Virus record (IMG/VR): IMGVR_UViG_2778261505_000007
Span: 1-25,134 of that record
Source: a virus
Lineage: Duplodnaviria; Heunggongvirae; Uroviricota; Caudoviricetes
Reading direction: 5' to 3' (one strand)
DNA: 25,134 nucleotides
Position numbers and translations under genes: made by a program. How positions within the stretch are numbered: position 1 is the first letter of the stretch; every line of letters starts with the position of its first letter. This document shows positions 4,966 to 20,978 of the stretch, one piece after another. The notes beneath the pieces were generated by a model. That model ran no database searches, was not told the origin of the DNA, and saw only the letters and a list, made by a program, of their open reading frames with translations.

Positions 4966-4980
4966 TTACCGTTGAGGTAA
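4966..4980. promoter_or_regulatory. Operator-like palindrome OL1 (TTACC-GTTGA-GGTAA)
   Basis: Perfect 5+5 inverted repeat with 5-bp spacer, abutting the putative -10 of the leftward promoter. Confidence 0.6.
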
Positions 4981-5008
4981 TGATTATGCGTATTTGGTTT
5001 GATGTCAA
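4980..5008 (-). promoter_or_regulatory. Putative leftward early promoter (P_L-like)
   Basis: On the minus strand: -35 TTGACA (plus 5003-5008), 17-bp spacer, -10 AATCAT (plus 4980-4985). Flanked by OL1 and OL2. Confidence 0.45.
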
Positions 5009-5027
5009 TAGATATGAGTTAAAAAAA

Positions 5028-5042
5028 TTACCTATTAGGTAA
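5028..5042. promoter_or_regulatory. Operator-like palindrome OL2 (TTACC-TATTA-GGTAA)
   Basis: Perfect inverted repeat 62 bp centre-to-centre from OL1, 20 bp upstream of the -35. Confidence 0.6.
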
Positions 5043-5051
5043 TAGTATAGG

Positions 5052-5078
5052 CAATAAAAAAGCCGCCAGAAGGCGGCT
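5052..5078 (-). terminator. Rho-independent terminator downstream of the repressor gene
   Basis: Hairpin AGCCGCC-AGAA-GGCGGCT followed on the minus strand by TTTTTATT, 22 bp past the repressor stop. Confidence 0.6.
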
Positions 5079-5099
5079 TACTTACTGAAAAATATGATT

Positions 5100-5684
5100 T
5101 TATTGTTTGTTTTTTTCGTTCTGGTTGATGACAAATTCAATGTAACTTTCGATCTTTGCCTTCTCTGTTTCAGGTAACAATGCGTAGCGCGAGCGGTCAT
5201 AGTTGATAGTCGCTGGGTCGTGCGGGTGAATCAGTAATTCATATCCGTGACGCCCAAATGCGGATGCAACATTCTCCAGGGTGGAAATGGAAACGCTGAC
5301 CTCATTGTTTAACAGGCGGCTGATTGTTACCTGGGCGACGCCGGATGCGCGGTGAAGTTTTCCCTGCGTTGAAAGGTCGCGGCTTTCGCTCATCCAGCGT
5401 TCCAGGTTGTGAGCCGCCAGCTGGCCAATGTCGCTTGGGCCGACAGGCTGAAAACCTTCCTGAGAAAGCGAGCGATCGATATCAAGCCAGTTACGGGGTT
5501 TATTGGCGGCAGCTTCAATTTTTCGTGCAACCTGGTCGCCGATAACCTTCTTGCCAAGAGCCCAGCGGTTTACCAGATTTGCCTGAGTTCCAAGTTTTTC
5601 AGCCATCCGCGTCTGAACACCATTGAATTCACGGTCGATCAAGTCGTTGAGATTTTGCCTGCGGACGTCCTGGATACTTTTCAT
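5100..5684 (-). CDS. CI-like prophage repressor, two XRE-type HTH regions, no S24 peptidase domain evident
   Basis: 194-aa ORF flanked by operator clusters and divergent from a cro-like gene. HTH-like segments TRMAEKLGTQANLVNRWALGKKVIG and GVAQVTISRLLNNEVSVSISTLENVASAFG. No GDSM-like serine or Ala-Gly cleavage motif found. Confidence 0.7.
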   Translation of the reverse strand: MKSIQDVRRQNLNDLIDREFNGVQTRMAEKLGTQANLVNRWALGKKVIGDQVARKIEAAANKPRNWLDIDRSLSQEGFQPVGPSDIGQLAAHNLERWMSESRDLSTQGKLHRASGVAQVTISRLLNNEVSVSISTLENVASAFGRHGYELLIHPHDPATINYDRSRYALLPETEKAKIESYIEFVINQNEKNKQ

Positions 5685-5739
5685 TTTCTGGAAAATCGCC
5701 TCATATCTGAATCAGAAGATGATTCAATTTAAAGCAATA

Positions 5740-5754
5740 TTACCCAACAGGTAA
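5740..5754. promoter_or_regulatory. Operator-like palindrome OR-a (TTACC-CAACA-GGTAA)
   Basis: Perfect inverted repeat in the cI-cro intergenic region. Confidence 0.6.
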
Positions 5755-5784
5755 ATGCACCTCATGGGTAACTATCCTTGATTT

Positions 5785-5813
5785 TTGTTACCTTATAGGT
5801 GAATATTTATTAT
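5785..5813 (+). promoter_or_regulatory. Putative rightward promoter for cro (P_R-like)
   Basis: -35 TTGTTA (5785-5790), 17-bp spacer, -10 TATTAT (5808-5813), about 25 bp upstream of the cro ATG. Confidence 0.45.
5788..5802. promoter_or_regulatory. Operator-like palindrome OR-b (TTACC-TTATA-GGTGA, one mismatch)
   Basis: Lies between the putative -35 and -10 of the rightward cro promoter. Confidence 0.5.
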
Positions 5814-5838
5814 CTGAAATAAATATCAGGCAATAGCT

Positions 5839-6069
5839 ATGAGCGATAACGGACATTTCGATTTCAAAAAGCACTGGCTTGCACTTACTCCGGATGAGCG
5901 TGAAGCCTTCGCACAGGAAGCCGGAACGACGAGTCACTATATCCAGACTCACTTAACAGGTAAGCGCAAAATGCCAGGTAAGGTATTGATGGATGGGCTT
6001 TTTAAAGCCTGTAAATCAAGACAATGGCTGCGCTCAAAAGCAGAACTGGCATACTTCTTCTACTCATGA
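5839..6069 (+). CDS. Cro-like small HTH regulator (YdaS/Cro-like)
   Basis: 76-aa ORF divergent from the repressor, followed by a strong terminator. HTH-like segment LTPDEREAFAQEAGTTSHYIQTHLTGKRK. Confidence 0.6.
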   Translation: MSDNGHFDFKKHWLALTPDEREAFAQEAGTTSHYIQTHLTGKRKMPGKVLMDGLFKACKSRQWLRSKAELAYFFYS

Positions 6070-6090
6070 TATCCAGCCACAACCCTCTGT

Positions 6091-6114
6091 AGACCGCCAC
6101 CCGGCGGTCTTTTC
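6091..6114 (+). terminator. Rho-independent terminator after cro (tR1-like)
   Basis: Hairpin AGACCGCC-ACCC-GGCGGTCT followed by TTTT. Confidence 0.6.
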
Positions 6115-6124
6115 ATATCTATTC

Positions 6125-6139
6125 GTACCTCAAAGGTAA
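6125..6139. promoter_or_regulatory. Operator-like palindrome (GTACC-TCAAA-GGTAA, one mismatch)
   Basis: Sits just past the cro terminator and upstream of the small Cys/His ORF. Confidence 0.45.
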
Positions 6140-6219
6140 TAAAAAACCAAATCTGGTTGATCTTTTTTTTGTGTCAGCACAAAATGACCGTAATCCCAAT
6201 ACTAATAACAGGGCTTACC

Positions 6220-6420
6220 ATGGAAATCATTACACGTATTGATGCCGCAAAGCGCGGACTTAAACGCTACTACACCGGAAAAACATGTAAGCACGGACAT
6301 GACAGTGAACGCTGGGTTTACAACGGACACTGTGTTGAGTGCACCATGGAATCAAACCGTCGTATCAGGGCAGAGATTAAGCAGATCATGATTAATTCCT
6401 CCCCACAACACTCAAGCTGA
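6220..6420 (+). CDS. Small Cys/His-rich putative zinc-binding protein (about 66 aa)
   Basis: ORF 6157-6420 in the track; an internal ATG at 6220 (or 6184) is the more likely start. Spacing CKHGH...HCVEC suggests a zinc-binding site. Occupies a cII-like position but no homology is asserted. Confidence 0.4.
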   Translation: MEIITRIDAAKRGLKRYYTGKTCKHGHDSERWVYNGHCVECTMESNRRIRAEIKQIMINSSPQHSS

Positions 6421-6435
6421 TAGCGGAGATTAATC

Positions 6436-7251
6436 ATGAGCAGACATGCAACAGATTGGGCCTGGGAGACAGATCCAGGCAGCTCATCATTAAAGCTCAT
6501 ACTGCTCTCGATGGCTGACAGAGCCGATGAATATAACCTCTGCTACCCCAGCATAGAACGCCTCGTTAAAGACACTTGCCTGAATAAAAAAACCGTACAG
6601 GCCGGGCTTATATCACTCATGAGAATGGGGCTTATTTCAGATACCGGAGAGAGAAAGGGGGCGACGAAAAGAGTGCGGGTTTTCTCTCTTAATATAACCA
6701 AAAAAGGGAACATTAAAGGCAACCTGGAAGGGTGTAATGAACCCGAAAACGGTAATGTTCCCGAAAACGGGAATATACCCAAAAACGGGATGTTGAATGA
6801 TCCCAAAAACGGGATGTTGAATGATCCCAAAAACGGGATCCAGAACCAGTCATATAACCAGTCATATAACCAAGAGAGGGAGAGCAGGACAAAAACCGAG
6901 GATTCTGTGCCTCATGACCCCGGCGCAAACAACGCCGTGATGAATAACTTTGTTCCTCCTGGTGGGCCAGGGCAATTAGGCAAATTTGTCATGCATGAAC
7001 AATGGCAGCCATCAGATGACTTTCTTCGGAAAAGCTCATTGCAGGGGATCTACCTGGACAGTCTGCCAACGGCACAGGAACTTGCAGAGTTCAGAATTTA
7101 CTGGATGGCTGAGGGTAAGGCATACCATCAGGCACAGTGGGAGCAGAAGCTGGCAAGGCGGCTGCAGATTAGCAGACAGAAGCAATCAACATTACCTGAT
7201 AACAACGTTCCGCACTGGAACAGCCCTGAAGCATGGGAGGATTTCTTGTGA
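6436..7251 (+). CDS. Replication initiator (lambda O-like) with origin iterons inside the gene
   Basis: 271-aa ORF immediately upstream of a lambda P homolog. The coding sequence contains five tandem DNA repeats, giving the peptide repeats PENGN/PKNGMLND; this matches the lambdoid arrangement of ori inside O. Confidence 0.75.
   Translation: MSRHATDWAWETDPGSSSLKLILLSMADRADEYNLCYPSIERLVKDTCLNKKTVQAGLISLMRMGLISDTGERKGATKRVRVFSLNITKKGNIKGNLEGCNEPENGNVPENGNIPKNGMLNDPKNGMLNDPKNGIQNQSYNQSYNQERESRTKTEDSVPHDPGANNAVMNNFVPPGGPGQLGKFVMHEQWQPSDDFLRKSSLQGIYLDSLPTAQELAEFRIYWMAEGKAYHQAQWEQKLARRLQISRQKQSTLPDNNVPHWNSPEAWEDFL
6742..6867. repeat. Putative origin of replication: five direct iterons (CCCRAAAACGG core, 18-24 bp units) plus a 2x AACCAGTCATAT repeat
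   Basis: Direct repeats read at 6742, 6760, 6778, 6802 and 6826; the 6778 and 6802 copies are identical 24-mers. Followed by a tandem 12-mer at 6844-6867. Confidence 0.7.
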
Positions 7252-8033
7252 ACAACGTTTTTACCGCGATACAAAACCGTGACGGAGAAGCCCTTTCTCG
7301 CATGTCAGGTTATGAGCATCAGTACACCAACAATGACAACGTGGTGAACATGTCAGCAGAGAGGCTTGTTGATGCCCTTTTCAAACAGCTGAAACAACTG
7401 TTTCCGGCGGCAGTGGTAACCAACCTGAAGACGCCAGAGCAGGAAGTTGCTGCAAAACAGCAGTGGATTGCTGCGTTTGCCGAAGGGGGGATCCGAACCC
7501 GTGAACAGGTTTCTGCTGGTATGCGCCACGCCCGCGCCAGTGAGTCTCCGTTCTGGCCGTCGCCAGGGCAATTCATCAAGTGGTGTAAAGACAGCAAGAT
7601 GGTTCTTGGCGTCACCATTGACGATGTGATGGCGGAGTTTCACCGGTACAGCAAGGAAAAAAGTTTATATCCTGGTGGTCCAGAAAGATTCCCGTGGCGA
7701 CATCCGGTTATGTACTGGGTCGTATGTGATACCCGCCGTGCAATGTATCAGCGCCAGCTTAGCGAGATTGAGGTTGAGAAACACGCGCGCAGGCTGCTCG
7801 ATGATTGGGCGAAAAAGGTGGCTTCCGGACAGCAGATACCCGATCCGGTGATCAGCATACAGGCAAAGCCAGAACCCATGAGTACACCTCCGGACACAGG
7901 GAGAGACGTTTACCATCCACCAGGGCGAAGTTTCGGGTGCATGCCTAACGCCGCCACCCTTGGGGGAATAACACCGGCGCAGTGGCTGATGGAGGAATAC
8001 AGGCGGGGAAAGGCGGCAGGATTTATCAAGTAA
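7233..8033 (+). CDS. Replication protein P-like (DnaB helicase loader)
   Basis: Clear similarity to lambda P in blocks (AGMRHARASESPFWPSPGQFIKWC; YPGGPERFPWRHPVMYWVV). Start may be GTG 7248 overlapping the O stop, with GGGAGG Shine-Dalgarno at 7234-7239. Confidence 0.85.
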   Translation: MGGFLVNNVFTAIQNRDGEALSRMSGYEHQYTNNDNVVNMSAERLVDALFKQLKQLFPAAVVTNLKTPEQEVAAKQQWIAAFAEGGIRTREQVSAGMRHARASESPFWPSPGQFIKWCKDSKMVLGVTIDDVMAEFHRYSKEKSLYPGGPERFPWRHPVMYWVVCDTRRAMYQRQLSEIEVEKHARRLLDDWAKKVASGQQIPDPVISIQAKPEPMSTPPDTGRDVYHPPGRSFGCMPNAATLGGITPAQWLMEEYRRGKAAGFIK

Positions 8034-8038
8034 TACCA

Positions 8039-8058
8039 GCGCGATAGCGCATTTTTTT
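8039..8058 (+). terminator. Weak putative terminator after the P-like gene
   Basis: Short GCGC-GATA-GCGC stem followed by ATTTTTTTA. The stem is only 4 bp. Confidence 0.3.
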
Positions 8059-8070
8059 ACGCTCAAATAA

Positions 8071-8085
8071 TTACCTATCAGGTAA
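8071..8085. promoter_or_regulatory. Operator-like palindrome (TTACC-TATCA-GGTAA)
   Basis: Perfect site 20 bp upstream of a -35-like TTGATT. Confidence 0.55.
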
Positions 8086-8104
8086 TAAAATATTCTAAAC
8101 TCTA

Positions 8105-8133
8105 TTGATTTCGTGTCTTATGTGGTTTTTAAT
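8105..8133 (+). promoter_or_regulatory. Putative promoter for the 8151-12117 operon
   Basis: -35 TTGATT (8105-8110), 17-bp spacer, -10 TTTAAT (8128-8133). Same geometry relative to the two palindromes as at P_L. Confidence 0.45.
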
Positions 8134-8147
8134 TACCTCAGAGGTAA
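8133..8147. promoter_or_regulatory. Operator-like palindrome (TTACC-TCAGA-GGTAA)
   Basis: Perfect site abutting the -10 and overlapping the Shine-Dalgarno of the 8151 gene; 62 bp centre-to-centre from the 8071 site. Confidence 0.55.
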
Positions 8148-8150
8148 ATC

Positions 8151-8498
8151 ATGAGAAAACAGATGCAGGCTCTTGGTCGACTCAAAACAGGCCAGATGAA
8201 CAAAACAGAATCTGCGTATTGCCAGCACCTTGAGCTGCGTAAACGTGCAGGGGAAATCGCCTGGTATCGATTCGAGGGTATCAAGCTGCGGTTAGCTAAT
8301 AACACGTTCTATACGCCCGATTTCGCTGTGATGCTCGCCACCGGCGAGATGGAGCTGCACGAAGTGAAAGGGGGATTCTGGACCGATGACGCCAGAGTGA
8401 AAACCAAAGTCGCCGCAGATCAGTATCCGTTCCGAATCATCGGGGTAACGGTTAAGCCAAAGAAAGCAGGTGGTGGCTGGAACATCGAAGAGTTCTGA
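8151..8498 (+). CDS. DUF1064-like phage protein
   Basis: 115-aa protein with a pattern typical of the DUF1064 family common in lambdoid replication/nin regions (YTPDF...HEVKGG). Family call is from memory, not a search. Confidence 0.55.
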   Translation: MRKQMQALGRLKTGQMNKTESAYCQHLELRKRAGEIAWYRFEGIKLRLANNTFYTPDFAVMLATGEMELHEVKGGFWTDDARVKTKVAADQYPFRIIGVTVKPKKAGGGWNIEEF

Positions 8499-8559
8499 AT
8501 CGACGATCTTTTTAGTTATCAATGTAATCAATAAGTTATGTGGATAAGCGAGGGTAAAG

Positions 8560-9165
8560 ATGGAAAGTAATATCAAAGAGTTAGTTGCCGCCGGGCATGA
8601 GATGGCTTCGGAACTGAAAGCAGAATGTGGTGCCGTTGATATGCGTAGTGTGGCAAAGCTGCTCAGCGATTTGGCAACGCAACTGGAAGTGCAACTGGCG
8701 CGTGCTAATGCGCTGGCGGCGGAGAATGCTCGCTACTCAATGTCAGCAGGGCAAGCAGACCAAAGAATGTCGGAGTCGTGCGCAGTTCGGGAGGCACTTG
8801 GGTTTAATCGGTCAGCTGACGACGTGTCACCATCTGACCTGGTAGATAAAATCAAATCTATCATAGCTGAATGTGATGCTATCCGTAGCGCACACCCTCA
8901 ACCACTTGGCCCTGTAATGGATGCTGCAATCGATGCATTTAATGCAGAGGAGATGCCTGAAACCGGAATGCTTAACGCGTACTTCATCCTGCGTGACAGC
9001 ATCACGGTGCAAACTCCGTCCACTGACGCCTTCCTGGCTGAAGTGCGGGCGCGGGGTGTGGAGATGTTTGCTGCCAGCCTGAAGGTTGTTGGTGGTCAAG
9101 AGCATCCATATTCATCGTTGGCTCACGAGTTCGCAACCCAGCTTCGCAAAGGAGGCAACCAGTGA
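8560..9165 (+). CDS. Hypothetical protein
   Basis: 201-aa ORF with good Shine-Dalgarno (GAGGGTAAAG ATG). No recognisable motif. Confidence 0.5.
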   Translation: MESNIKELVAAGHEMASELKAECGAVDMRSVAKLLSDLATQLEVQLARANALAAENARYSMSAGQADQRMSESCAVREALGFNRSADDVSPSDLVDKIKSIIAECDAIRSAHPQPLGPVMDAAIDAFNAEEMPETGMLNAYFILRDSITVQTPSTDAFLAEVRARGVEMFAASLKVVGGQEHPYSSLAHEFATQLRKGGNQ

Positions 9166-9806
9166 GTAACCGTTTTTACATGATGTGCTTGCGTGAAACT
9201 GTGGGTAATAACGCCTCATTCCATTGCCATAACGGCAATGGTTACAGTTCTGATATCGATCGCGCTCATGTTTACACGCTGGAAGAAGCCCAAAAAGCCT
9301 GGAATTGTGGGCGAGATATCGATCAGCCTGTTTGTGCCGATAGTGTGGATGCAATGGCTGTGTGGCACGTTGATTGCCAGTACATCCCTACAGAAAGCCT
9401 GATTGAGTCAGATTGCACTGCGTATGTGGCCTACAAAAAAGGTAGCTGGAACGGCAACGATGTTTACTGGCTTCAACACGGTGGATTGCCAACAGATGAC
9501 TTCAGTAAAGCGACCATCTTTAGCGTCGCCAACAAAAACGAACCAGGAATAGTTTGGTTGCCATTTTCCATTGCTGATGCAGCAAAGCGCCGGACGTTCA
9601 ATATCAATAACTTTAACCGCAGAACAATGGTTCAGGGCGCAGGTTTGGTCATGCCTGACTGGTTGAAAGAGCAGAACAGAAGAAAGAAGTCGCGAAGCGG
9701 GAAGGTGCGTTGGAATTGTCCGCATTGCGGAAAAATAACCTGGCAGTACAGCCCATATGATTTTGAAGGCTGTAGTGATTACAACTGTGAAGGATGGCGA
9801 GAATGA
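9162..9806 (+). CDS. Hypothetical Cys-rich protein with C-terminal zinc-ribbon-like motif
   Basis: 214-aa ORF with GTG start overlapping the previous stop and AAAGGAGG Shine-Dalgarno. C-terminus WNCPHCGKITWQYSPYDFEGCSDYNCEGW. Confidence 0.5.
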   Translation: MSNRFYMMCLRETVGNNASFHCHNGNGYSSDIDRAHVYTLEEAQKAWNCGRDIDQPVCADSVDAMAVWHVDCQYIPTESLIESDCTAYVAYKKGSWNGNDVYWLQHGGLPTDDFSKATIFSVANKNEPGIVWLPFSIADAAKRRTFNINNFNRRTMVQGAGLVMPDWLKEQNRRKKSRSGKVRWNCPHCGKITWQYSPYDFEGCSDYNCEGWRE

Positions 9807-10444
9807 CAATTGACTATCAGGTACTGCGTGAGGCGGCAGAAAAGGCAACGTGTGGTGAGTGGTCGCTCGAATATGGAAAGGGCCGATTTGATGGTGATGA
9901 TGCGCTAATTCATCGTGAAGTTGCTGGATATATTCCCATTTGCAGAATTGAAGGAGCGCATCCTGAAAGCGGTTTCGATGAAGATTTCCAAACTGAACAG
10001 CAGGCCAATGCTGAATTCATCGCCGCAGCCAGTCCAGCTACCGTGCTGGCGCTGCTGGACGAGCTGGAGCATTACAAATCACGCGAAGAGCGGGTTACAA
10101 AGCTGGTTATGGATAACTCGACAAGTTGGAATGCTCTCTACAAGAAACTGAAAGACGTAGAGAAGCGCATTGCAGAACTGGAAGCACGGGAAATAAAACC
10201 AGCCAAAGGTGAAGTTCTTGTCGTTGTTTCTGGTTTTACTGGTTGCGGAAAAAGCGCCATTGCCGGGGAAATAGAAATTGCGATGAAAGCTATTGGTGTA
10301 CCGGTACAGTGGACTAATGGCGATGCGGAAAAGCGCATGACAGGAGCTGACTGGCTGACAGCGATTGAGATGTACAAACCAACAGTGCGCATCGTGGAAG
10401 TTAATGTGCCACGCGCCGCTGGCATTCGCATCAAAGGAGAGTGA
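9794..10444 (+). CDS. Ead/Ea22-like protein
   Basis: Contains the segment ANAEFIAAASPATVLALLDELE characteristic of the lambdoid Ead/Ea22-like family, followed by a coiled-coil stretch. Confidence 0.6.
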   Translation: MARMTIDYQVLREAAEKATCGEWSLEYGKGRFDGDDALIHREVAGYIPICRIEGAHPESGFDEDFQTEQQANAEFIAAASPATVLALLDELEHYKSREERVTKLVMDNSTSWNALYKKLKDVEKRIAELEAREIKPAKGEVLVVVSGFTGCGKSAIAGEIEIAMKAIGVPVQWTNGDAEKRMTGADWLTAIEMYKPTVRIVEVNVPRAAGIRIKGE

Positions 10445-10445
10445 T

Positions 10446-10667
10446 ATGGCTAACTCATTACTTAAAACATGCAACAACTGGCAGATTCAGAGGGCGGAGA
10501 TTTTATCTCGCAATCCAGATATGGCAATGACAATTGATAACCTGGATACGCTAATTGAACGGACCGTGCGTTCTGCAATTGATATAGCACATCGAGTGGA
10601 TTGGGATTTCAGAGAAGCGGAGCGACTCGCTAAAGAGCAGGCGAAAGCAGCGGGAAAAGGAGAGTGA
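10446..10667 (+). CDS. Hypothetical protein (73 aa)
   Basis: ATG at 10446 with AGGAGAG Shine-Dalgarno; the ORF-track version starting at 10365 overlaps the previous gene. Confidence 0.45.
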   Translation: MANSLLKTCNNWQIQRAEILSRNPDMAMTIDNLDTLIERTVRSAIDIAHRVDWDFREAERLAKEQAKAAGKGE

Positions 10668-10668
10668 T

Positions 10669-11436
10669 ATGACCACTTTCACCGACAAAGAACTGATTAA
10701 AGAAATCAAAGAGCGTATCAGCAGCCTGGACGTTCGAGACAATATTGAACGCCGGGCTTATGAAATTGCACTGGCATCGCTGGAAGCAGATCCAGTTGCT
10801 TATATTTTCAAACATCCTGCCGGGAAATTATTCTGGGCTTTAACGGATGAAAGCAATAAAGAGCAACCGGACGTTATTCCTGTTTATGCTGACTCACCTG
10901 CGCCGGTTGTGCCGGATGAAATAGACGTAAACGATGTACCAAGGGCGGTGACATATTTCAAGACACACAGAGATTGTTACGCAGATGGCTGGAACGCCTG
11001 CCACGCTGCCATGCTTCAGGGTAGCCAACCTGTAAGCCAAACTTACAACTTGCCAGAATTAATCGAAGGCATGGAAGTTTCCATTGATGTAAGCACTTGT
11101 GATGCTGATTTAGGTAATCGCTATTTCGGCACCGTCACCGAGGCGTTAGAACTTGATACAGCCAAGAATGGTTACATCCTCCTGGTTCAGGACGCAGAGC
11201 CAAACTTCGATGTAAATGGCAACTCTCCGGTAACTCCGGATGGTTGGATAAGCTGTAGTGAGCGAATGCCGAACGAAGAAGATGTTTTGGTTTATTGCTC
11301 AGACACAAAAGAGCAGATGGTAGGGTTTCACAAAGGTAAAGGGTTATTTCAATTCTTTTACATGAATGGTGTTGAGGGGGTATGTGAGCCGTCACACTGG
11401 ATGCCGCTACCAGAGCCGCCGCAGGAGGTGAAGTGA
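10669..11436 (+). CDS. DUF551-like phage protein
   Basis: C-terminal region with the HWMPLPEPP signature of the DUF551 family. Confidence 0.6.
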   Translation: MTTFTDKELIKEIKERISSLDVRDNIERRAYEIALASLEADPVAYIFKHPAGKLFWALTDESNKEQPDVIPVYADSPAPVVPDEIDVNDVPRAVTYFKTHRDCYADGWNACHAAMLQGSQPVSQTYNLPELIEGMEVSIDVSTCDADLGNRYFGTVTEALELDTAKNGYILLVQDAEPNFDVNGNSPVTPDGWISCSERMPNEEDVLVYCSDTKEQMVGFHKGKGLFQFFYMNGVEGVCEPSHWMPLPEPPQEVK

Positions 11437-11786
11437 TGGACTATTCACAGTTAAGTGATTTTGAAATTAACAGAATGGTAGGAGACATAATTTTTAAAGG
11501 CCTTTGGGCGTGTAAACCGGAAACATCAGGGAATAACACCAACAAATGGTATTACGGAAATACTGATACAACTTTTGAGCCATTAAACCCTTTACCTGAC
11601 TACTGCAATAATCCATCGGATGCATGGCCTATTATTGTTGATAATAAAATCAGTCTAACCTGCCACCAATCTCGCGGTGAGTGGTCAGCTGTTTTTAATG
11701 CCGAGAACATTTGCTTTCATGCGAATAATCCACTCCGAGCCGCCATGATTGTATTTCTCATGATGCAGGAAAATCAGAATGGCTAA
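11436..11786 (+). CDS. NinX-like (DUF2591-like) protein
   Basis: N-terminus MDYSQLSDFEINRMV resembles the NinX family of lambdoid phages. AGGAGGTG Shine-Dalgarno; ATG overlaps the previous stop (TGATG). Confidence 0.55.
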   Translation: MDYSQLSDFEINRMVGDIIFKGLWACKPETSGNNTNKWYYGNTDTTFEPLNPLPDYCNNPSDAWPIIVDNKISLTCHQSRGEWSAVFNAENICFHANNPLRAAMIVFLMMQENQNG

Positions 11787-12117
11787 ATCAGCATCAGAGC
11801 GCAAAGCCGCTCAGAGAGCCAGACAAGCTGCATCTGGTGTGCGTAAGCTGGAGATTGTGCTTGATGCTCAGGAAATTGAAATGCTGGAGCGTAACTGTGC
11901 CACGCGTCGCCCCGGGCGTGCGCCTTACGAATTTGGGGAGTATATAGCGTTACTGATCCGCCAGGATGATGCACGCGTGCGCGGGCGTATAAAATCGATT
12001 AGCAGAAAACGTTGCGGTAAGTGCGGCGAGAAAGTTCCCGTTAATTCATGCCCGTGTAATGGTGACTCGCAATGCTGGGTGACTAAAGGCTGGCATGAAA
12101 CTAAATTAATAGTGTGA
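11779..12117 (+). CDS. Hypothetical basic protein with putative DNA-binding N-terminus and C-terminal Cys cluster
   Basis: 112-aa ORF; N-terminal basic/helical segment (SERKAAQRARQAASGVRKLEIVLDAQEIEMLER) and C-terminal CGKCGEK...CPCNGDSQC motif. Last gene before the terminator and the terminase genes. Confidence 0.45.
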   Translation: MAKSASERKAAQRARQAASGVRKLEIVLDAQEIEMLERNCATRRPGRAPYEFGEYIALLIRQDDARVRGRIKSISRKRCGKCGEKVPVNSCPCNGDSQCWVTKGWHETKLIV

Positions 12118-12166
12118 CATGTCACGAGTAGATTATGCATGATGAATTTGATGGGTTTTGAATACT

Positions 12167-12193
12167 GCCGCCAACTATGGCGGCTTTATTTTG
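12167..12193 (+). terminator. Rho-independent terminator upstream of the terminase genes
   Basis: Hairpin GCCGCC-AACTAT-GGCGGC followed by TTTATTTTG. Confidence 0.55.
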
Positions 12194-12203
12194 CATGGTA
12201 CTA

Positions 12204-12218
12204 TTACCACAACGGTAA
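12204..12218. promoter_or_regulatory. Operator-like palindrome (TTACC-ACAAC-GGTAA)
   Basis: Perfect site 18 bp upstream of the terminase small subunit ATG. Confidence 0.55.
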
Positions 12219-12221
12219 CAA

Positions 12222-12236
12222 TTACCAGGGTGGTTA
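12222..12236. promoter_or_regulatory. Operator-like palindrome (TTACC-AGGGT-GGTTA, one mismatch)
   Basis: Immediately adjacent second site, overlapping the terminase small subunit Shine-Dalgarno and start. Confidence 0.4.
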
Positions 12237-12832
12237 TGATGCCTGCTGAACCTAAAACCTATAAACGCAAATCAACGCAATTTAAGCCACTAACCGCAAT
12301 GCAGGAGGCTTATTGCCAGTCATACATCAAAACGCCTGAAAACCAGACTCAGGCAGCGATTAACGCAGGATTCTCCCCAAATACAGCGGCAGTTAAAGCC
12401 AGTGTCATGATGCGCGATGAACGCATTCAAAAACGGATTGCCGAGTTGATGGAGGAGCGCAACAAACGAATGCGCGTCAGTGCCGATTACGTTCTCATGC
12501 GCCTGGTGGAGATCGACCAGATGGACGTGATTGATATCCTCAACGACGATGGGAGCCTTAAGCCAATCCGCGAGTGGCCGAAAATCTGGCGCACTACGCT
12601 TAGTGGCTTTGATCTGTCATCGACCATCATGAACATGAACGAGGATTCGATAGAGACAATCCTCAAAAAAATTAAATGGCCTGACAAGGTGAAGAACCTC
12701 GAACTGATTGGTAAGCACGTCGACGTCAACGCATTCAAAGAACGCCTGGATGTTAATGTGAATGTGACAATTGCTGATCGCATAGCGGCAGCCAGGAAGC
12801 GACTCAAAGAACGTCAGGATGGTAATCAGTGA
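12236..12832 (+). CDS. Terminase small subunit
   Basis: Translation has the pattern typical of phage small terminases (LTAMQEAYCQSYIKTPENQTQAAINAGFSPNTAAVKASVMMRDERIQKRIAEL). True start is taken as ATG 12236/12239 because the ORF-track N-terminal extension runs through a terminator. Confidence 0.8.
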   Translation: MMPAEPKTYKRKSTQFKPLTAMQEAYCQSYIKTPENQTQAAINAGFSPNTAAVKASVMMRDERIQKRIAELMEERNKRMRVSADYVLMRLVEIDQMDVIDILNDDGSLKPIREWPKIWRTTLSGFDLSSTIMNMNEDSIETILKKIKWPDKVKNLELIGKHVDVNAFKERLDVNVNVTIADRIAAARKRLKERQDGNQ

Positions 12833-14298
12833 CAGATACAGCGTTATCTCCTGAAGAGCAGTTGATCGAGGATATTGCAGGGTTCACTCACGATCCGCTT
12901 GGCTATGCCCTCTATGCGTTCCCGTGGGGGGAAGAGGGGACTGAACTGGCACATGCTACCGGCCCACGTCAGTGGCAGGCTGATGCGTTCCGAGAGATAC
13001 GTGATCACCTGCAGAATCCAGAGACGCGCTATCAGCCGCTTATGCTGGCACGCGCTTCGGGTCACGGTATTGGTAAATCCGCATTCATCTCAATGCTGAT
13101 CAACTGGGGCATGTCCACTTGCGAGGATTGTAAGGTCGTGGTGACCGCCAACACCGACAACCAGCTACGAACGAAGACCTGGCCGGAAATTATCAAGTGG
13201 TCGAACCTTGCTATCACGAAAGACTGGTTTACCTGTACCGCTACCGCGATGTACAGCAATGACCCTGGGCACGACAAGCGGTGGCGAGCTGACGCAATCC
13301 CCTGGTCTGAGCACAACACTGAGGCATTCGCCGGACTACACAACGAGCGCAAACGCATCATCGTGGTATTCGACGAAGCATCCAACATTGCCGATCTGGT
13401 GTGGGAGGTAGCAGAGGGTGCGCTGACGGACGAAGACACTGAGATTATCTGGGTGGCATTCGGAAACCCTACACGTAACACCGGGCGTTTCCGCGAATGT
13501 TTCCGCAAATATAAACACCGCTGGAAAACTGCGCAGATTGACAGCCGGACGGTGGAAGGCACTAACAAACAGCAGTTGCAGAAATGGGTTGATGACTACG
13601 GGGAAGACAGCGACTTCGTTAAAATCCGTGTGCGCGGCATATTCCCTGATGCATCTGAATTGCAGTTTATCCCTACCGGTCTTACTGATGAGGCAATGAA
13701 ACGGGTGGTAACCGCTGCGCAGGTGGCGCATGCTCCGGTGATAATCGGTGTTGACCCGGCATATTCAGGCGTTGATGACGCGGTGATATACCTGCGGCAG
13801 GGGCTACACAGTAAGGTGCTGTGGACTGGCAACAAGACTACCGACGATCTGATTATGGCGAAGCGTATCGCTGACTTTGAAGACCAGTATCAGGCTGACG
13901 CGGTGTTCATCGACTTCGGTTACGGAACCGGTCTGAAGTCAATCGGTGACGGATGGGGTCGTACATGGCAACTTGTTCCGTTCGGTGGCGCGTCTACTGA
14001 CCCGCAGATGCTCAACAAGCGTGGGGAGATGTTCAATTCATGCAAGACATGGCTGAGGCTGGGCGGCATGCTGGATGACCAGGAAACAGCAGACGACCTG
14101 TCGGCGGCAGAGTACAAAGTTCGAGTGGACGGTAAAATCGTTATCGAACCGAAGGAAGATATCAAGGAGCGGCTTGGGCGTTCGCCGGGTAAAGGCGATG
14201 CGCTACTGCTGACGTTTGCGTTCCCGGTAGCCAAGAAAACTAATGACCCACGGCAGCAGCAGGGCAGGGCTATAACAGACTATGACCCATTTGAATGA
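12829..14298 (+). CDS. Terminase large subunit
   Basis: 489-aa protein with Walker A-like ATPase motif (ARASGHGIGKS), an acidic Walker B-like region (IIVVFDEAS) and a C-terminal nuclease-like region. GTG start overlaps the small subunit stop. Confidence 0.9.
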   Translation: MTDTALSPEEQLIEDIAGFTHDPLGYALYAFPWGEEGTELAHATGPRQWQADAFREIRDHLQNPETRYQPLMLARASGHGIGKSAFISMLINWGMSTCEDCKVVVTANTDNQLRTKTWPEIIKWSNLAITKDWFTCTATAMYSNDPGHDKRWRADAIPWSEHNTEAFAGLHNERKRIIVVFDEASNIADLVWEVAEGALTDEDTEIIWVAFGNPTRNTGRFRECFRKYKHRWKTAQIDSRTVEGTNKQQLQKWVDDYGEDSDFVKIRVRGIFPDASELQFIPTGLTDEAMKRVVTAAQVAHAPVIIGVDPAYSGVDDAVIYLRQGLHSKVLWTGNKTTDDLIMAKRIADFEDQYQADAVFIDFGYGTGLKSIGDGWGRTWQLVPFGGASTDPQMLNKRGEMFNSCKTWLRLGGMLDDQETADDLSAAEYKVRVDGKIVIEPKEDIKERLGRSPGKGDALLLTFAFPVAKKTNDPRQQQGRAITDYDPFE

Positions 14299-14301
14299 TT
14301 T

Positions 14302-15150
14302 TTACTTTTGTGTTTTTGATTTTCTTTGATGGGTGGAATTTAAACCACCATTTATATTTACTAGAGGATTATTCAATAATGTACTGATTTCTGGATTGTT
14401 AATTCCAGTAACGCCAAGTTTCTTTACGGACTCATTAAGGTCTTGTAATGATTTTAGACCTACAAACCCATTAGCAATTGTATTATTTGTTGCCAAAGGA
14501 ATGTTTTTCTTATAGGACTCATATTCGTTTTTTAAATTTTTGTGGGCTTTTTCTAGATTTTCTAGTTTAGATGTTGTTTCATGAATAACCTTAGATAATT
14601 CTAAAATACGAGCTTGTGCTGCGCGCAGTTCTGTCTCCCTCTCTTTCAATTCAGATGTGAGTTGTCCCATTCTGTCTTTTGAAAGAATTATTTCCTCTTT
14701 CATGTCTTGAATGTTTTTTTCAGCGCCTGTTTTTACTTTTTCGTAAGTAATGTCTTTTTTAGCCAGCAATCTCTGTAGCCGTGTTTCACGTTGTATTTTT
14801 CTTGCCTTCCGGTGATTTTCGATTGAGTCATTATTATCAAGAGGCTTTGCTTGCCATACGTTAATGATATTGTTTACCCATGGTAATAGGCAGCAGATAG
14901 TAATTACAGATAAGCATGGATAAAACATAACAGTTTTCCATGTGCTGTTATCTGAGATGTATGAAATTTTATCTATTATATTTGATTTGCTAAAAAATAG
15001 ATAAAGAAGTGATTTCCAGTTGAAGGCGCACCAGGACATAACAAAAGCACCTAGCACAGGGTTTTTAGCTCGATGCACGGCAGTATTGGCAGTAGATAAA
15101 AACAGCTCTTTGAACGATTCGAACATACTAATTACCTTAAAGTTTTTCAT
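14302..15150 (-). CDS. AT-rich gene: membrane-anchored coiled-coil protein of unknown function (about 282 aa)
   Basis: Opposite strand to all flanking late genes and visibly AT-rich. Two hydrophobic segments (PVLGAFVMSWCAFNWKSLLYLFF; TVMFYPCLSVITICCLLPWVNNIINVW) followed by a long charged heptad-like region. Preferred start ATG 15150 (AAGGT Shine-Dalgarno); the longer track ORF to 15222 would translate through a terminator hairpin. Confidence 0.6.
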   Translation of the reverse strand: MKNFKVISMFESFKELFLSTANTAVHRAKNPVLGAFVMSWCAFNWKSLLYLFFSKSNIIDKISYISDNSTWKTVMFYPCLSVITICCLLPWVNNIINVWQAKPLDNNDSIENHRKARKIQRETRLQRLLAKKDITYEKVKTGAEKNIQDMKEEIILSKDRMGQLTSELKERETELRAAQARILELSKVIHETTSKLENLEKAHKNLKNEYESYKKNIPLATNNTIANGFVGLKSLQDLNESVKKLGVTGINNPEISTLLNNPLVNINGGLNSTHQRKSKTQK

Positions 15151-15154
15151 GATT

Positions 15155-15169
15155 ATACCTTTAAGGTAA
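15155..15169. promoter_or_regulatory. Operator-like palindrome (ATACC-TTTAA-GGTAA, one mismatch)
   Basis: Overlaps the Shine-Dalgarno/promoter region of the AT-rich gene. A TTACC half-site also at 15132-15136. Confidence 0.4.
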
Positions 15170-15184
15170 TTTGTGGTCATCAGG

Positions 15185-15209
15185 CAAAAAAATGCCCGGC
15201 GAACCGGGC
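15185..15209 (-). terminator. Rho-independent terminator downstream of the tRNA
   Basis: On the minus strand, hairpin GCCCGG-TTCG-CCGGGC followed by ATTTTTTT. Confidence 0.55.
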
Positions 15210-15372
15210 GAACTGGAAGCAATGAGTTATGCCTTCCGTGGCTGTACGGGTTTACAGCATGAAGTCATCGCAATGGCGTCCTGCTGTAAAAAGGGCGGTG
15301 ATAGTCCTTCAAGGGAAACCATCACCGCCAAGCCCCTGGAACTTCTGGCATCACGGTCCTTAGGCGTGATTC

Positions 15373-15449
15373 TGGCGCGGCATGCAGGATTCGAACCTGC
15401 GACCAACCGCTTAGAAGGCGGTTGCTCTGTCCAACTGAGCTAATGCCAC
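15373..15449 (-). tRNA. tRNA-Arg (anticodon UCU)
   Basis: Minus-strand 77-nt sequence GTGGCATTAGCTCAGTTGGACAGAGCAACCGCCTTCTAAGCGGTTGGTCGCAGGTTCGAATCCTGCATGCCGCGCCA folds by hand into a cloverleaf: 7-bp acceptor stem, GTTCGAATCC T-arm, anticodon loop CTTCTAA, encoded CCA. Related to but distinct from the host argU sequence as I recall it. Confidence 0.9.
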
Positions 15450-15771
15450 AACGCTGAGAGCACTTAGCCTGTTAAGGCACCACACTTTGTCGCGGCTCCA
15501 TAAATGCTCTCATCGTTGCACCCTCGTCTCTTCCGAGGTGTCACACCGAATCGCCGGGATGGTGAATCCCCGTGCGCGGAATAAAACCGCTCGACTTGCA
15601 CATTCCGGCTACCTGGTTCGTTTGCCCGAGCAAGGGAGGGTGCCCCTTAAACGTATCCAGACCGCTATCGGCGCATGTGCCATACACCGTACTGCTCAAA
15701 ATAAAAGCTCACCCCACCTGTTCAATTTAACGACAAGCCAGTCAGGTTAATAACCGGAATGAACTCTTTGC

Positions 15772-15786
15772 TTACCTGAAAGGTAA
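15772..15786. promoter_or_regulatory. Operator-like palindrome (TTACC-TGAAA-GGTAA)
   Basis: Perfect site about 90 bp upstream of the first virion gene. Confidence 0.55.
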
Positions 15787-15876
15787 TAATTAGTGCGTTA
15801 AATGTCAAGTATCTACGATAAATAAATCACATGTGGTTAAATTGGTAATAATTTAATTGCGTACGGAGTCATTGAT

Positions 15877-16083
15877 ATGTGCATGGGTAGCTCACCATCA
15901 GTGCCTGCAACACCAGAAGTTCAGGCAGCACCACAGGAGCAGGATGCCGCCGTTGTTGATGCCCGCGACGAAGAAACTCGTCGCCGTCGCGCTGCTGCTG
16001 GTCGTAGTTCTACGCTGCTTACCGGTTCTCAGGGCGACACATCAACCGCTAATACCAGCGGTAAAACGCTGCTTGGTCAGTAA
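15877..16083 (+). CDS. Small virion protein, possibly T7 gp6.7-like
   Basis: 68-aa ORF with GGAG Shine-Dalgarno, directly upstream of the portal. Begins MC... and is Ala/Arg/Thr-rich; similarity to T7 gp6.7 is tentative and recalled from memory. Confidence 0.4.
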   Translation: MCMGSSPSVPATPEVQAAPQEQDAAVVDARDEETRRRRAAAGRSSTLLTGSQGDTSTANTSGKTLLGQ

Positions 16084-16097
16084 CCGGAGTCATTGAA

Positions 16098-19820: not shown

Positions 19821-20258
19821 ATGATCACCGACAAACTGTTGATGTTCTCCGAAGCTCAGGCGGTTACGAATACCGCGGCTTCTACTGACGTAATCGATCT
19901 CGGTCCAATTGACGGAAAACGTCGTGATATTGGCGTTGGTTACCCGCTTGAGTTTTGGGTGCTGGTTAACGAAGCCGCCACGGCAAGTGGTGAGGCAACT
20001 GTAAACATCCAGTTGCAGACGAGTGAGAATAACAGCTCTTGGACCACTATTTATGATAGTGGTGCGTTGGCAAAGGCCACCCTGACAGCAGGTAAGCGAG
20101 TTGTTTCTGCAAAGGTGCCAGCCGGTGTTCAGCGATATCTGCGTGTTAACTACTCCGTCGCAACTGGCCCACTAACGGCCGGCAAATTCACTGCGGGTAT
20201 CAGTCTGGATGTTGATGCCAATACGCCGTATCCGATCCGCTCAAAAGTAACTGGTTAA
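19821..20258 (+). CDS. Hypothetical virion-module protein (145 aa)
   Basis: ORF with GGAGAAAGA Shine-Dalgarno directly after the capsid gene. Possibly a decoration or head-associated protein. Confidence 0.5.
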   Translation: MITDKLLMFSEAQAVTNTAASTDVIDLGPIDGKRRDIGVGYPLEFWVLVNEAATASGEATVNIQLQTSENNSSWTTIYDSGALAKATLTAGKRVVSAKVPAGVQRYLRVNYSVATGPLTAGKFTAGISLDVDANTPYPIRSKVTG

Positions 20259-20654: not shown

Positions 20655-20978
20655 ATGGAACTCGTAAACCTTAAAACCGGCACTGACAGCTACCAGGATG
20701 AGAGCGGAGAAACCAGAACTCGCGATGAATACCCGTGGGGGCTGTGCATCACTCTTAATAACGACACATTGAATAAGCTGAAGGCGCAACCTCAGGGCGT
20801 CGGAACAGAAGTGATGATAACGGCAAAGGCTGTTATTCGAGGCCTGTCTGCCAGAGAAACTGACGATGGTGTTAATCGCAGCGCCGATCTGCAGATCACT
20901 GATATGGCGATCGCTCCTGTTTCCGGGGATGTAGAAAAATCAGCGGCTGAAACTCTGTACGGCAATGGGGGGGAGTAA
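20655..20978 (+). CDS. Hypothetical protein (about 107 aa)
   Basis: ORF with AGGAG Shine-Dalgarno 5 nt before ATG 20655. Confidence 0.5.
   Translation: MELVNLKTGTDSYQDESGETRTRDEYPWGLCITLNNDTLNKLKAQPQGVGTEVMITAKAVIRGLSARETDDGVNRSADLQITDMAIAPVSGDVEKSAAETLYGNGGE

Follow-up and report, generated by a model that had tools for sequence, protein, structure and literature searches.

Operators of the immunity repressor Rep are probably distributed over several transcription units of a phiV10/epsilon15-like prophage

Overview

The palindrome TTACC-N5-GGTAA that recurs between the genes of a temperate phage is very probably the operator for Rep, an immunity repressor of the SPC32H/epsilon15 type that the prophage itself encodes. 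The window, meaning the whole 25,134-nucleotide stretch of DNA that was analysed, is a phiV10/epsilon15-like (Uetakevirus) prophage, and the operators are a rediscovery, since public annotation of them exists for this phage genus. The sequence-only reading had proposed a repressor operator, OL and OR groups around the repressor gene, and further copies at unit boundaries; these parts stand. Its additional proposal, that direct control of late units replaces a regulatory cascade, goes beyond the evidence. Computed here were the statistics, location and conservation of the motif, the homology of Rep, and the association of the half-site with the N-terminal domain of Rep.

Distribution of the palindrome

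The two arms of the site, (A)TTACC-N5-GGTAA(T), form a symmetric palindrome, and the spacer between them is strictly 5 bp long. Its information content is limited to two 5-bp half-sites one turn apart, and the sequence of the spacer varies freely. A pattern scan recovered exactly the seven perfect copies read earlier by eye (starting at 4966, 5028, 5740, 8071, 8133, 12204, and 15772) and the four copies with one mismatch (5788, 6125, 12222, and 15155); no twelfth match with at most one mismatch was detected in the whole window. The number of copies was said to exceed chance, and dinucleotide shuffles bear this out with means of 0.00 perfect and 0.39 one-mismatch matches and a maximum of 2. The spacer length is equally specific, with 11 matches for N5 and 3, 1, 0, and 1 for N3, N4, N6, and N7, respectively.

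All 11 sites lie in the non-coding share of the window, which amounts to 7.0% on a curated map of coding sequences (P ∼1e-7, even with the six clusters each counted as one event). The only coding overlap is a single base, where site 12222 meets the terS ATG. The claim that the copies are intergenic is thus upheld, and a check of coding density lent no support to its refutation. As had also been noted, copies mark most transcription-unit boundaries. Several of them lie directly 3′ of an intrinsic terminator, and 6 of the 11 belong to four units other than OL/OR. A promoter scan yielded no more matches overall than shuffled sequence (15 found, 15.0 expected), and only the coincidence of its best matches with sites was used; operator sites overlap or adjoin three predicted promoters, two of which are among the top three by score.

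The immunity region and its repressor

The rep gene (5100..5684, minus strand) encodes an immunity repressor of 194 aa, assigned by homology and Pfam, and operator groups are present on both sides of it, in agreement with the proposed OL/OR arrangement and with the motif as the probable operator of this repressor. The OL proximal operator (4966..4980, perfect) adjoins the -10 and spans the start inferred for PL, the leftward early promoter (TTGACA-17-AATCAT, 5008..4980, minus strand; 10/12 in the promoter scan). The distal operator (5028..5042, perfect) is found at about -61, 62 bp centre-to-centre from the proximal site. The intrinsic terminator of rep (5060..5079, minus strand) was detected by the terminator scan and is also annotated in phiV10. 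Three sites make up OR: site 1, closest to rep (5740..5754, perfect); a degenerate site 2, GCACCTCATGGGTAA, between the other two (5757..5771, two mismatches); and site 3 (5788..5802, one mismatch), within the spacer of the rightward promoter PR (TTGTTA-17-TATTAT, 5785..5813; promoter scan). Site 2 is orthologous to the middle OR sites of epsilon15 (33358) and SPC32H (34407), with a spacing of 17 bp.

The Rep of the window is 100% identical to that of phiV10 and ZX5 and is a full-length homologue of SPC32H Rep (5D50; E=4e-42, residues 1-190), whose tetramerisation domain (5D4Z) aligns with its C-terminal domain. Pfam places HTH_3 at 106-147 and a YdaS-like HTH, below threshold (21.0 bits; cut-off 30), at residues 21-61. 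The predicted architecture is an N-terminal HTH DNA-binding domain followed by a C-terminal HTH_3-like domain for tetramerisation and Ant binding. No S24 peptidase domain is present, with Pfam matches to HTH families only, and no homology to P1 C1 or L5 gp71 was found, with matches to HTH_3/XRE-type families and 5D50 only. The segment NLVNRW of the recognition helix is invariant in an alignment of Reps that are 43-78% identical and have the motif in common.

In SPC32H, a Rep-Ant switch was reportedly described by Kim & Ryu in 2013 and Kim et al. in 2016, in which the tetrameric repressor is inactivated by an antirepressor. A homologue of ant in phiV10 carries a LexA-like box, CTGTATAAATACACAG, resembling the LexA-box-controlled ant of this switch. 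PMC9638917 reports SPC32H Rep as a tetramer on palindromic sites; the same paper and PMC9986798 describe DNA-binding pairs drawn from different dimers of the tetramer and a tetramerisation domain that is a member of a DNA-looping fold. In phage ZX5, for which different antirepressors are reported (PMC9782041), transcripts of holin and endolysin fell by more than 99.9% when the identical Rep was overexpressed (PMC9782041). This drop, measured by qPCR, is compatible with direct and indirect repression alike.

The palindromes could instead be bound mainly by the Cro-like protein (5839..6069, plus strand), or by both proteins as in lambda, with the copies serving lytic-phase down-regulation. This small HTH protein of 76 aa belongs to phrog_35 'transcriptional repressor' (E=8.7e-13) and is 78-84% identical across the genus, with an HTH segment that does not vary among the phages that have the motif. 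Lambdoid phages have operators common to Cro and CI. Covariation of motif and repressor cannot be followed within the genus, because the motif is present in all members, as are the HTHs of Rep and of the Cro-like protein; an outgroup, the Pseudomonas lambdoid phage PseuP_224, was used instead. Its cI is similar to the N-terminal domain of Rep only (39% identity, E=1e-12), TTACC-N4-GGTAA sites surround cI only, and its Cro has no similarity to the Cro-like protein of the window. From this pattern it follows that the half-site, as judged by similarity, tracks the Rep DNA-binding domain; of the phages compared, only those of Uetakevirus have operators spread over the genome. The outgroup, with its half-sites and Rep-type domain kept beside a dissimilar Cro, speaks against a mainly Cro-bound site, as does the assignment of the sites to the repressor by the epsilon15 annotators, and this alternative is judged unlikely. 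Binding by the Cro-like protein is compatible with Rep binding too, and the protein may also use the sites since it is equally conserved within the genus. The motif is read here as the Rep operator because of the homology of Rep, the epsilon15 annotation, and the tracking of the half-site with the Rep N-terminal domain in the outgroup.

Conservation and prior annotation in Uetakevirus

The epsilon15 GenBank record (AY150271.2 / NC_004775.2) lists seven ATTACC-N5-GGTAAT sites as 'protein_bind repressor / lysogeny', located at OL, P-nin, terS, the virion operon (first virion gene), and the tailspike gene. The OR, second P-nin, lysis, and int sites are left unannotated in that record and are present in the motif scan. 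Orthologous places in phiV10, SPC32H, Tyrion (analysed by DNA sequence search only), and Klebsiella BUCT711 carry the motif as well. Each relative harbors 8-11 perfect sites and 13-18 with at most one mismatch, compared with ∼0.5 expected. A literature search, whose coverage excluded the primary SPC32H and epsilon15 papers, returned nothing further on the motif or on Uetakevirus operators.

Spacing is conserved along with position. The OL pair is 62 bp apart in phiV10, epsilon15, SPC32H, and Tyrion and 63 bp in BUCT711; the P-nin pair is 62 bp apart in six of six phages compared; and the OR sites are spaced 17+30/31 bp. These data bear on the suggestion that the palindromes are module-boundary sequences kept by mosaic recombination, or parts of hitch-hiking terminator-promoter cassettes, an origin that would suit their position at unit junctions and an accessory cassette junction 17 bp from site 15155. 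Such an origin is very improbable given that information resides in the two half-sites only, with free spacer sequence and strict spacer length, that spacing to promoter elements is fixed among genomes 76-98% identical, and that an unrelated siphovirus has these half-sites on either side of its cI.

Operators beyond the immunity region

The early-right units carry both single and paired operators. Downstream of the cro-like gene, an intrinsic terminator (6091..6110, plus strand; terminator scan, also annotated in phiV10) is followed by the single operator of the replication operon (6125..6139, one mismatch), ∼60 bp upstream of the inferred promoter start and conserved in phiV10 (33112), Tyrion (35365), and BUCT711 (6032). 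The promoter of this operon, TTGATC-17-CAAAAT, is one that we infer by eye, and P-nin is likewise a manual reading. The nin-like operon has a perfect distal operator (8071..8085) at about -62, orthologous to an epsilon15 site annotated 'repressor' (35906-35922), and a perfect proximal operator (8133..8147) that spans the inferred start and the Shine-Dalgarno sequence of gene 8151. The early-right operon is closed by an intrinsic terminator (12167..12184, plus strand; terminator scan) that is conserved in epsilon15 and SPC32H.

At terS, operator 1 (12204..12218, perfect) is orthologous to epsilon15 site 12-27, annotated 'repressor', and operator 2 (12222..12236, one mismatch) spans the terS Shine-Dalgarno sequence and touches the ATG; their 18-bp spacing is conserved. 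The virion operon has a single perfect operator (15772..15786), about -79 from the inferred late start, whose epsilon15 orthologue (2931-2947) is again annotated 'repressor'. In six of six phages compared, 56 bp separate this type of site from a conserved late-promoter box, CACATGTGGTT, which is followed by 7 nt and a -10-like TAATAA (15828..15851, plus strand) and is separate from the palindrome yet matters for the reading of site 15772. The late promoters share this second box, CATATGTGGTT-N7-TAATAA, and have no -35 element, which suggests an additional late activator. The candidate regulator gene at 11779-12117, just before the terS terminator, encodes an RHH-like, Cys-rich protein of 112 aa with no match in Pfam, NCBIfam, or PDB sequence searches; structure prediction from a 22-sequence alignment gave a pLDDT of 56. 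Family searches of the window proteins yielded no N or Q match.

The centres of the late sites are ∼67-79 bp upstream of the inferred starts, off the core promoter, which tells against the earlier claim of direct control in place of a cascade. The distance from Rep site to late box also differs among late units (44, 47, and 56 bp), and therefore a uniform steric mechanism is unlikely. Direct repression of the late units by Rep is plausible.

A further operator (15155..15169, one mismatch) occupies the spacer and -10 of the promoter (ATGACC-17-TATAAT, 15180..15152, minus strand; 10/12 in the promoter scan) of a strain-specific accessory gene (14302-15126/15150, minus strand), which lies downstream of the site. 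The operator is in a cassette absent from phiV10; homology to phiV10 resumes at 15186, 17 bp from the site. Its design is that of the int-upstream site, TTACCTTAAAGGTATACT, of phiV10 and SPC32H. A tRNA is the sole Rfam match in the region 14200-16200.

The least probable alternative, that the palindromes act as RNA hairpins in termination, processing, or masking of ribosome-binding sites, draws on the inclusion of the downstream gene's Shine-Dalgarno sequence in sites 8133, 12222, and 15155, and was rejected given weak folding energies (-1.7 to -6.0 kcal/mol) without U-tracts, real terminators adjoining the sites, and several sites upstream of inferred starts that would be untranscribed.

A model for Rep action

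We infer physical binding of Rep to these operators, looping, and repression at the late units. In a Rep tetramer, N-terminal HTH domains would work in pairs, each domain reading one TTACC half-site, with the two half-sites a helical turn apart. Intrinsic terminators would cut the genome into short units, each transcribed anew from its own promoter with one or two operators. PL and P-nin, both early promoters of the sigma70 type, would have one operator at the -10 and start or immediately downstream of them and the second exactly 62 bp upstream, such that one tetramer could bind the two together and place the promoter on a small loop. The promoter of the replication operon would have an upstream operator only, at about -60; its site and the virion site are single, without a partner 62 bp away, which counts against this explanation. 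The three operators at PR/PRM would form a switch. At the accessory promoter and P-int, the latter outside the window, the operator would fill the spacer, and a changed last base would let GGTA-TAAT double as the -10. At terS, two tandem operators would sit between terminator and start codon, and in the virion operon a single operator would precede a late promoter of the activator type. Rep would shut every unit directly in a lysogen; upon induction, an SOS-controlled antirepressor, encoded outside the window, would remove it from all sites at once.

A broader joint reading is tentative and, on balance, doubtful. It holds that Rep is a global looping tetramer that directly silences every unit through two promoter grammars, with late genes timed by an activator. 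In the first, early sigma70 promoters would be held by two operators with a spacing of exactly 62 bp. In the second, promoters without a -35 but with the box CATATGTGGTT-N7-TAATAA / AACCA-N4-TGGTT would be read by a phage activator, possibly the 11779-12117 protein, and a single Rep site would lie a constant distance upstream. If this were true, late timing would consist of the activator plus removal of Rep, without antitermination, and accessory genes could enter the regulon by gaining a GGTA-TAAT operator/-10 hybrid.

Significance

The general weight of these results is small, as they carry the existing epsilon15 annotation and the SPC32H Rep-Ant model over to phiV10-like prophages. Fragments of such prophages match in ∼9% of complete E. 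coli genomes, and the operator map is of use for annotation and for designing reporter phages based on phiV10. Four details may be absent from the public record: the strictly conserved 62-bp operator pairing; the association of the half-site with the N-terminal domain of Rep in more than one genus, where the spacer length differs; the operator/-10 hybrid of int and the accessory gene; and the second conserved late-promoter box. They could guide work on the timing of late genes in a temperate podovirus without a recognised Q.

Comparison with known systems

Epsilon15 is the closest parallel, with the same operator sequence at the same orthologous positions in the same genus and gene order. The window differs in its phiV10-like E. 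coli lineage, whose records carry no repressor-site annotation, in having two OL sites where epsilon15 has three, in the extra operator at the strain-specific accessory gene, and in a Rep that is only 43% identical overall. SPC32H shares the full-length Rep match to 5D50 and the same motif at the same places, whereas the C-terminal (Ant-binding) half of Rep has diverged and the ant locus lies outside the window.

As in lambda, rep and the cro-like gene are divergent with several operators between them and a second cluster at PL. Unlike lambda, the window has operators beyond the immunity region and a Rep without an S24 peptidase. It also has terminators downstream of cro, downstream of the replication genes, and upstream of terS, and a further region with operators comes after each of them. 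In PseuP_224, a DNA-binding domain of the Rep type occurs together with the classical lambda layout and an annotated Q.

Operators at many units, beyond OL/OR, are known for single immunity repressors such as P1 C1 and phiC31 c. Many operators of mycobacteriophage L5 gp71, the 'stoperators', are likewise spread over the genome (PMC1934351). The window resembles P1 C1, L5 gp71, and phiC31 c in that its operators are also spread over several transcription units. The P1 and L5 operators are asymmetric and their proteins unrelated, whereas the site of the window is a strict palindrome, probably read by an HTH pair; compared with P1 and L5, Uetakevirus has ∼14-18 sites, often paired 62 bp apart.

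Genomic context

The window shares 97-98% identity with phiV10-like E. coli temperate podoviruses (among them PAS61, phiv142-3, phiV10, ZX5, and TL-2011b) and 77-81% with Uetakevirus members from Salmonella, Enterobacter, and Klebsiella; epsilon15 is the type phage of this genus. The gene order runs from the integrase gene and leftward early operon through the immunity repressor gene rep (5100-5684, minus) and the cro-like gene (5839-6069) to the replication genes (DnaT-like, lambda-P-like), the nin-like operon, and terS/terL, followed by a minus-strand accessory region with tRNA-Arg and the virion operon. Annotations of SPC32H and the O157 typing phages include the tRNA-Arg(UCU) gene (15373-15449, minus; ARAGORN and Rfam, 69 bits), which lies in the interval from terL to the virion operon; the phiV10 and epsilon15 records do not annotate it. 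Approximately 6-7 iteron-like repeats (6690-6881; consensus ...TCCCAAAAACGGGA..., spacing 18-24 bp) lie within the DnaT-like replication initiator gene (6436-7251); the array is probably the phage origin, and its position resembles that of the lambda ori inside gene O.

Distribution of the palindrome

A pattern scan of the window for the palindrome TTACC-N5-GGTAA detects seven perfect matches to TTACCNNNNNGGTAA (first bases 4966, 5028, 5740, 8071, 8133, 12204, and 15772) and four sites with one mismatch (5788, 6125, 12222, and 15155), exactly the copies listed by the sequence-only reading and none further. Its claim that this is far beyond chance holds, as dinucleotide-preserving shuffles yield means of 0.00 perfect and 0.39 one-mismatch sites (maximum 2). 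The same half-sites with N3, N4, N6, or N7 spacers match 3, 1, 0, and 1 times in the window; enrichment is specific to the 5-bp spacer. The CDS map, which combines the ORF list with annotations taken from close relatives, leaves 7.0% of the window non-coding, and all 11 sites fall in this fraction rather than at similar density inside coding regions. As claimed, copies are intergenic or at gene starts, the sole coding contact being a single base of site 12222 that overlaps the terS start codon. Placement of every site outside coding sequence has a probability of ~1e-7, even with the six clusters counted as one event each. A twelfth copy, degenerate with two mismatches, is found at 5757 between two sites of OR, which with OL forms the operator clusters flanking rep. 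The palindrome pattern is real.

Several clusters lie directly 3' of an intrinsic terminator, as located by a terminator scan (5060-5079, minus; 6091-6110; 12167-12184; 15194-15209, minus) or, before site 8071, by the phiV10 annotation. The promoter architecture around the sites is partly inferred and covers PL, P-nin, the replication operon, PR, the accessory gene, and terS. At PL, the leftward early promoter (TTGACA-17-AATCAT, 5008..4980; promoter scan), site 4966 adjoins the -10 and overlaps the inferred start; the centre of site 5028 falls near -61. At P-nin, the nin-like operon promoter (TTGATT-17-TTTAAT; read by eye), both the start and the gene 8151 Shine-Dalgarno fall within site 8133, with site 8071 at ~-62. 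The replication-operon promoter (TTGATC-17-CAAAAT; read by eye) has an upstream site only (6125, ~-60); site 5788 fills the spacer of the rightward promoter PR (TTGTTA-17-TATTAT; promoter scan). A tandem pair of sites lies between the terminator and the terS ATG, an interval in which no convincing promoter was found.

Conservation across the genus

The phages phiV10, epsilon15, SPC32H, Tyrion, and Klebsiella phage BUCT711 each harbor 8-11 perfect sites, rising to 13-18 when up to one mismatch is allowed, compared with about 0.5 expected. Conservation of position, proposed earlier as a check, is found in all five Uetakevirus phages, where the sites occupy the same gene boundaries. Spacing is also base-exact: it is 62 bp centre-to-centre at OL and P-nin (63 bp at the BUCT711 OL), 17 + 30/31 bp at OR, and 18 bp for the terS pair. 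Only TTACC and GGTAA carry information content; ACC/GGT does not vary across 52 half-sites, the flanks show a weak A/T preference, and the N5 spacer is unconstrained. Such half-site-only conservation is the footprint of a dimeric HTH protein that contacts two major grooves separated by one turn.

The probable binding protein

Rep, the 194-aa product of rep, is 100% identical to the Rep of phiV10 and ZX5; it aligns full-length with the crystallised SPC32H repressor 5D50 (E=4e-42) and through its C-terminal half with 5D4Z. No S24 peptidase domain was found in Rep using Pfam. PMC9638917 describes SPC32H Rep as a tetramer on palindromic DNA, in which the paired DNA-binding domains on one palindrome belong to different dimers, and which is released by a tetrameric antirepressor; PMC9986798 assigns its tetramerisation domain to a fold linked to DNA looping. 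In PMC9782041, overexpressing ZX5 Rep cut the transcripts of holin and endolysin by 99.97-99.99%.

Within the genus, the NLVNRW segment of Rep is invariant despite 43% overall identity, and the Cro-like protein (76 aa) is 78-84% identical, so the genus alone does not discriminate between the two. The unrelated Pseudomonas siphovirus PseuP_224 has a cI that resembles the Rep N-terminal domain only (39% identity over 71 residues, E=1e-12) and a divergent Cro with no detected similarity to the Cro-like protein. TTACC-N4-GGTAA palindromes lie on both sides of its cI (three upstream, two downstream); the whole 43-kb genome, which carries an annotated Q, has four copies at ≤1 mismatch, all around cI. 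The TTACC half-site therefore tracks the Rep-type DNA-binding domain. In PseuP_224 (OP795451.1, 10906-11820), the spacer is 4 bp instead of 5 bp and operators are confined to OL and OR, a natural case of the same recognition helix with altered half-site spacing. Among the phages compared, the genome-wide distribution is a Uetakevirus feature, not a property of the domain. Assignment of the palindromes to the immunity repressor, as originally proposed, is well supported by the epsilon15 annotation, the homology to SPC32H Rep, and the PseuP_224 outgroup.

By analogy with lambda, the Cro-like protein likely binds the sites too, which is compatible with Rep binding rather than an alternative to it. 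A role purely as module boundaries leaves unexplained the half-site-only conservation, the strict spacer, and the same half-sites around the PseuP_224 cI. As RNA hairpins, the palindromes are too weak (-1.7 to -6.0 kcal/mol) and lack a U-tract.

Late units

All phages compared share a second conserved element, the late box, upstream of the virion operon, tailspike gene, and lysis operon. It consists of CATATGTGGTT, a quasi-palindrome (AACCA-N4-TGGTT), followed after 7 nt by TAATAA, TAATAG, or TATAAT, with no -35-like hexamer. It occurs at 15828-15851 in the window (also 8117-8127 and 6145-6158), at 3308, 20921, and 24739 in phiV10, and at 2988, 19940, and 24751 in epsilon15; phiV10 has 6-7 occurrences at ≤1 mismatch, compared with about 0.6 expected. 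Upstream of the late box, the Rep site starts at a distance of 56 bp (virion), 44 bp (tailspike), or 47 bp (lysis), each identical in every phage in which both elements were found. These offsets centre the Rep sites at ~-79, -67, and -70, outside the core promoter and on differing faces of the helix, which weakens the case for Rep alone governing late transcription. In phiV10, a LexA-box-like CTGTATAAATACACAG (20820-20845; equivalents in epsilon15 and SPC32H) precedes the ant homologue, a locus outside the window, and lies ~40 bp to the left of the Rep site that precedes the tailspike gene.

The late promoters resemble activator-dependent ones, and the late box is probably the site of a late activator. 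Profile searches detected no N or Q families among the window proteins; candidate activators are a 112-aa protein (11779-12117) and a PerC-like protein (2089-2388). The former, encoded by the last gene before the terS terminator, belongs to phrog_536 ('transcriptional regulator') and has a basic strand-helix-helix pattern at its N-terminus and an invariant cluster C79xxC82...C91xC93...C99; its AlphaFold model is of low confidence (pLDDT 56), too uncertain for structure search. Within 11779-12124, a palindrome, GTGACATGTCAC, spans the stop codon of its gene and is kept in epsilon15 and SPC32H. At the single late sites, Rep may pair over long range with another single site, interfere with an upstream factor such as IHF, whose site is annotated beside two of them in the epsilon15 record, or not repress at all. 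That Rep directly controls the late and accessory units is a plausible reading, in agreement with the epsilon15 annotation, but the presence of a second element at late promoters points to a further regulator rather than Rep alone.

The accessory gene

A strain-specific accessory gene (274-282 aa; phrog_4780), which with its own operator-bearing promoter occupies 14302-15186 (minus), has weak coiled-coil/SMC-like matches. Site 15155 fills the spacer of its promoter (ATGACC-17-TATAAT, minus; promoter scan), and the mismatch that converts GGTAA to GGTAT-AAT allows the operator to serve also as the -10. The PHROG profile alignment begins at residue 9, which would fit use of the second ATG (15126), downstream of the inferred transcription start. 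A 13-bp inverted repeat around the gene start (ATTACCTTAAAGG...CCTTTAAGGTAAT, -14.7 kcal/mol as RNA) might hide the ribosome-binding site when transcription reads through from outside. The cassette is missing from phiV10, epsilon15, SPC32H, and PAS61, in which the slot gene directly follows the terminator without promoter or operator. Phage records show no match to the accessory gene past the first ~14 bp. Of 5426 complete E. coli genomes, just 18 carry it at full length, and the copy in strain GPEC1186 is 100% identical. Upstream of int, phiV10, SPC32H, and epsilon15 have a site identical to site 15155 in sequence and design.

Comparison with epsilon15

The epsilon15 GenBank record contains seven 'protein_bind ... 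repressor / lysogeny' features with sequences ATTACC-N5-GGTAAT: upstream of terS (12-27), the first virion gene (2931-2947), the tailspike gene (19895-19911), and the nin-like operon (35906-35922), and three at OL (32479, 32554, 32616). Our scan of epsilon15 adds sites missing from its record: three at OR, a second at P-nin, and single sites preceding the lysis operon and int. The window orthologues of the annotated sites are 12204, 15772, 4966/5028, and 8071; sites outside the immunity region are thus public knowledge for the genus, at least as predictions. Sites at the nin-like, terminase, and virion units are present as the sequence-only reading described, but they are not unusual, since the epsilon15 record annotates them. 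The modest leads are the 62-bp pairing, the operator/-10 hybrid, and the late box. Genome-wide repressor sites are already known for Uetakevirus, at least as a prediction, and the window is one more member.
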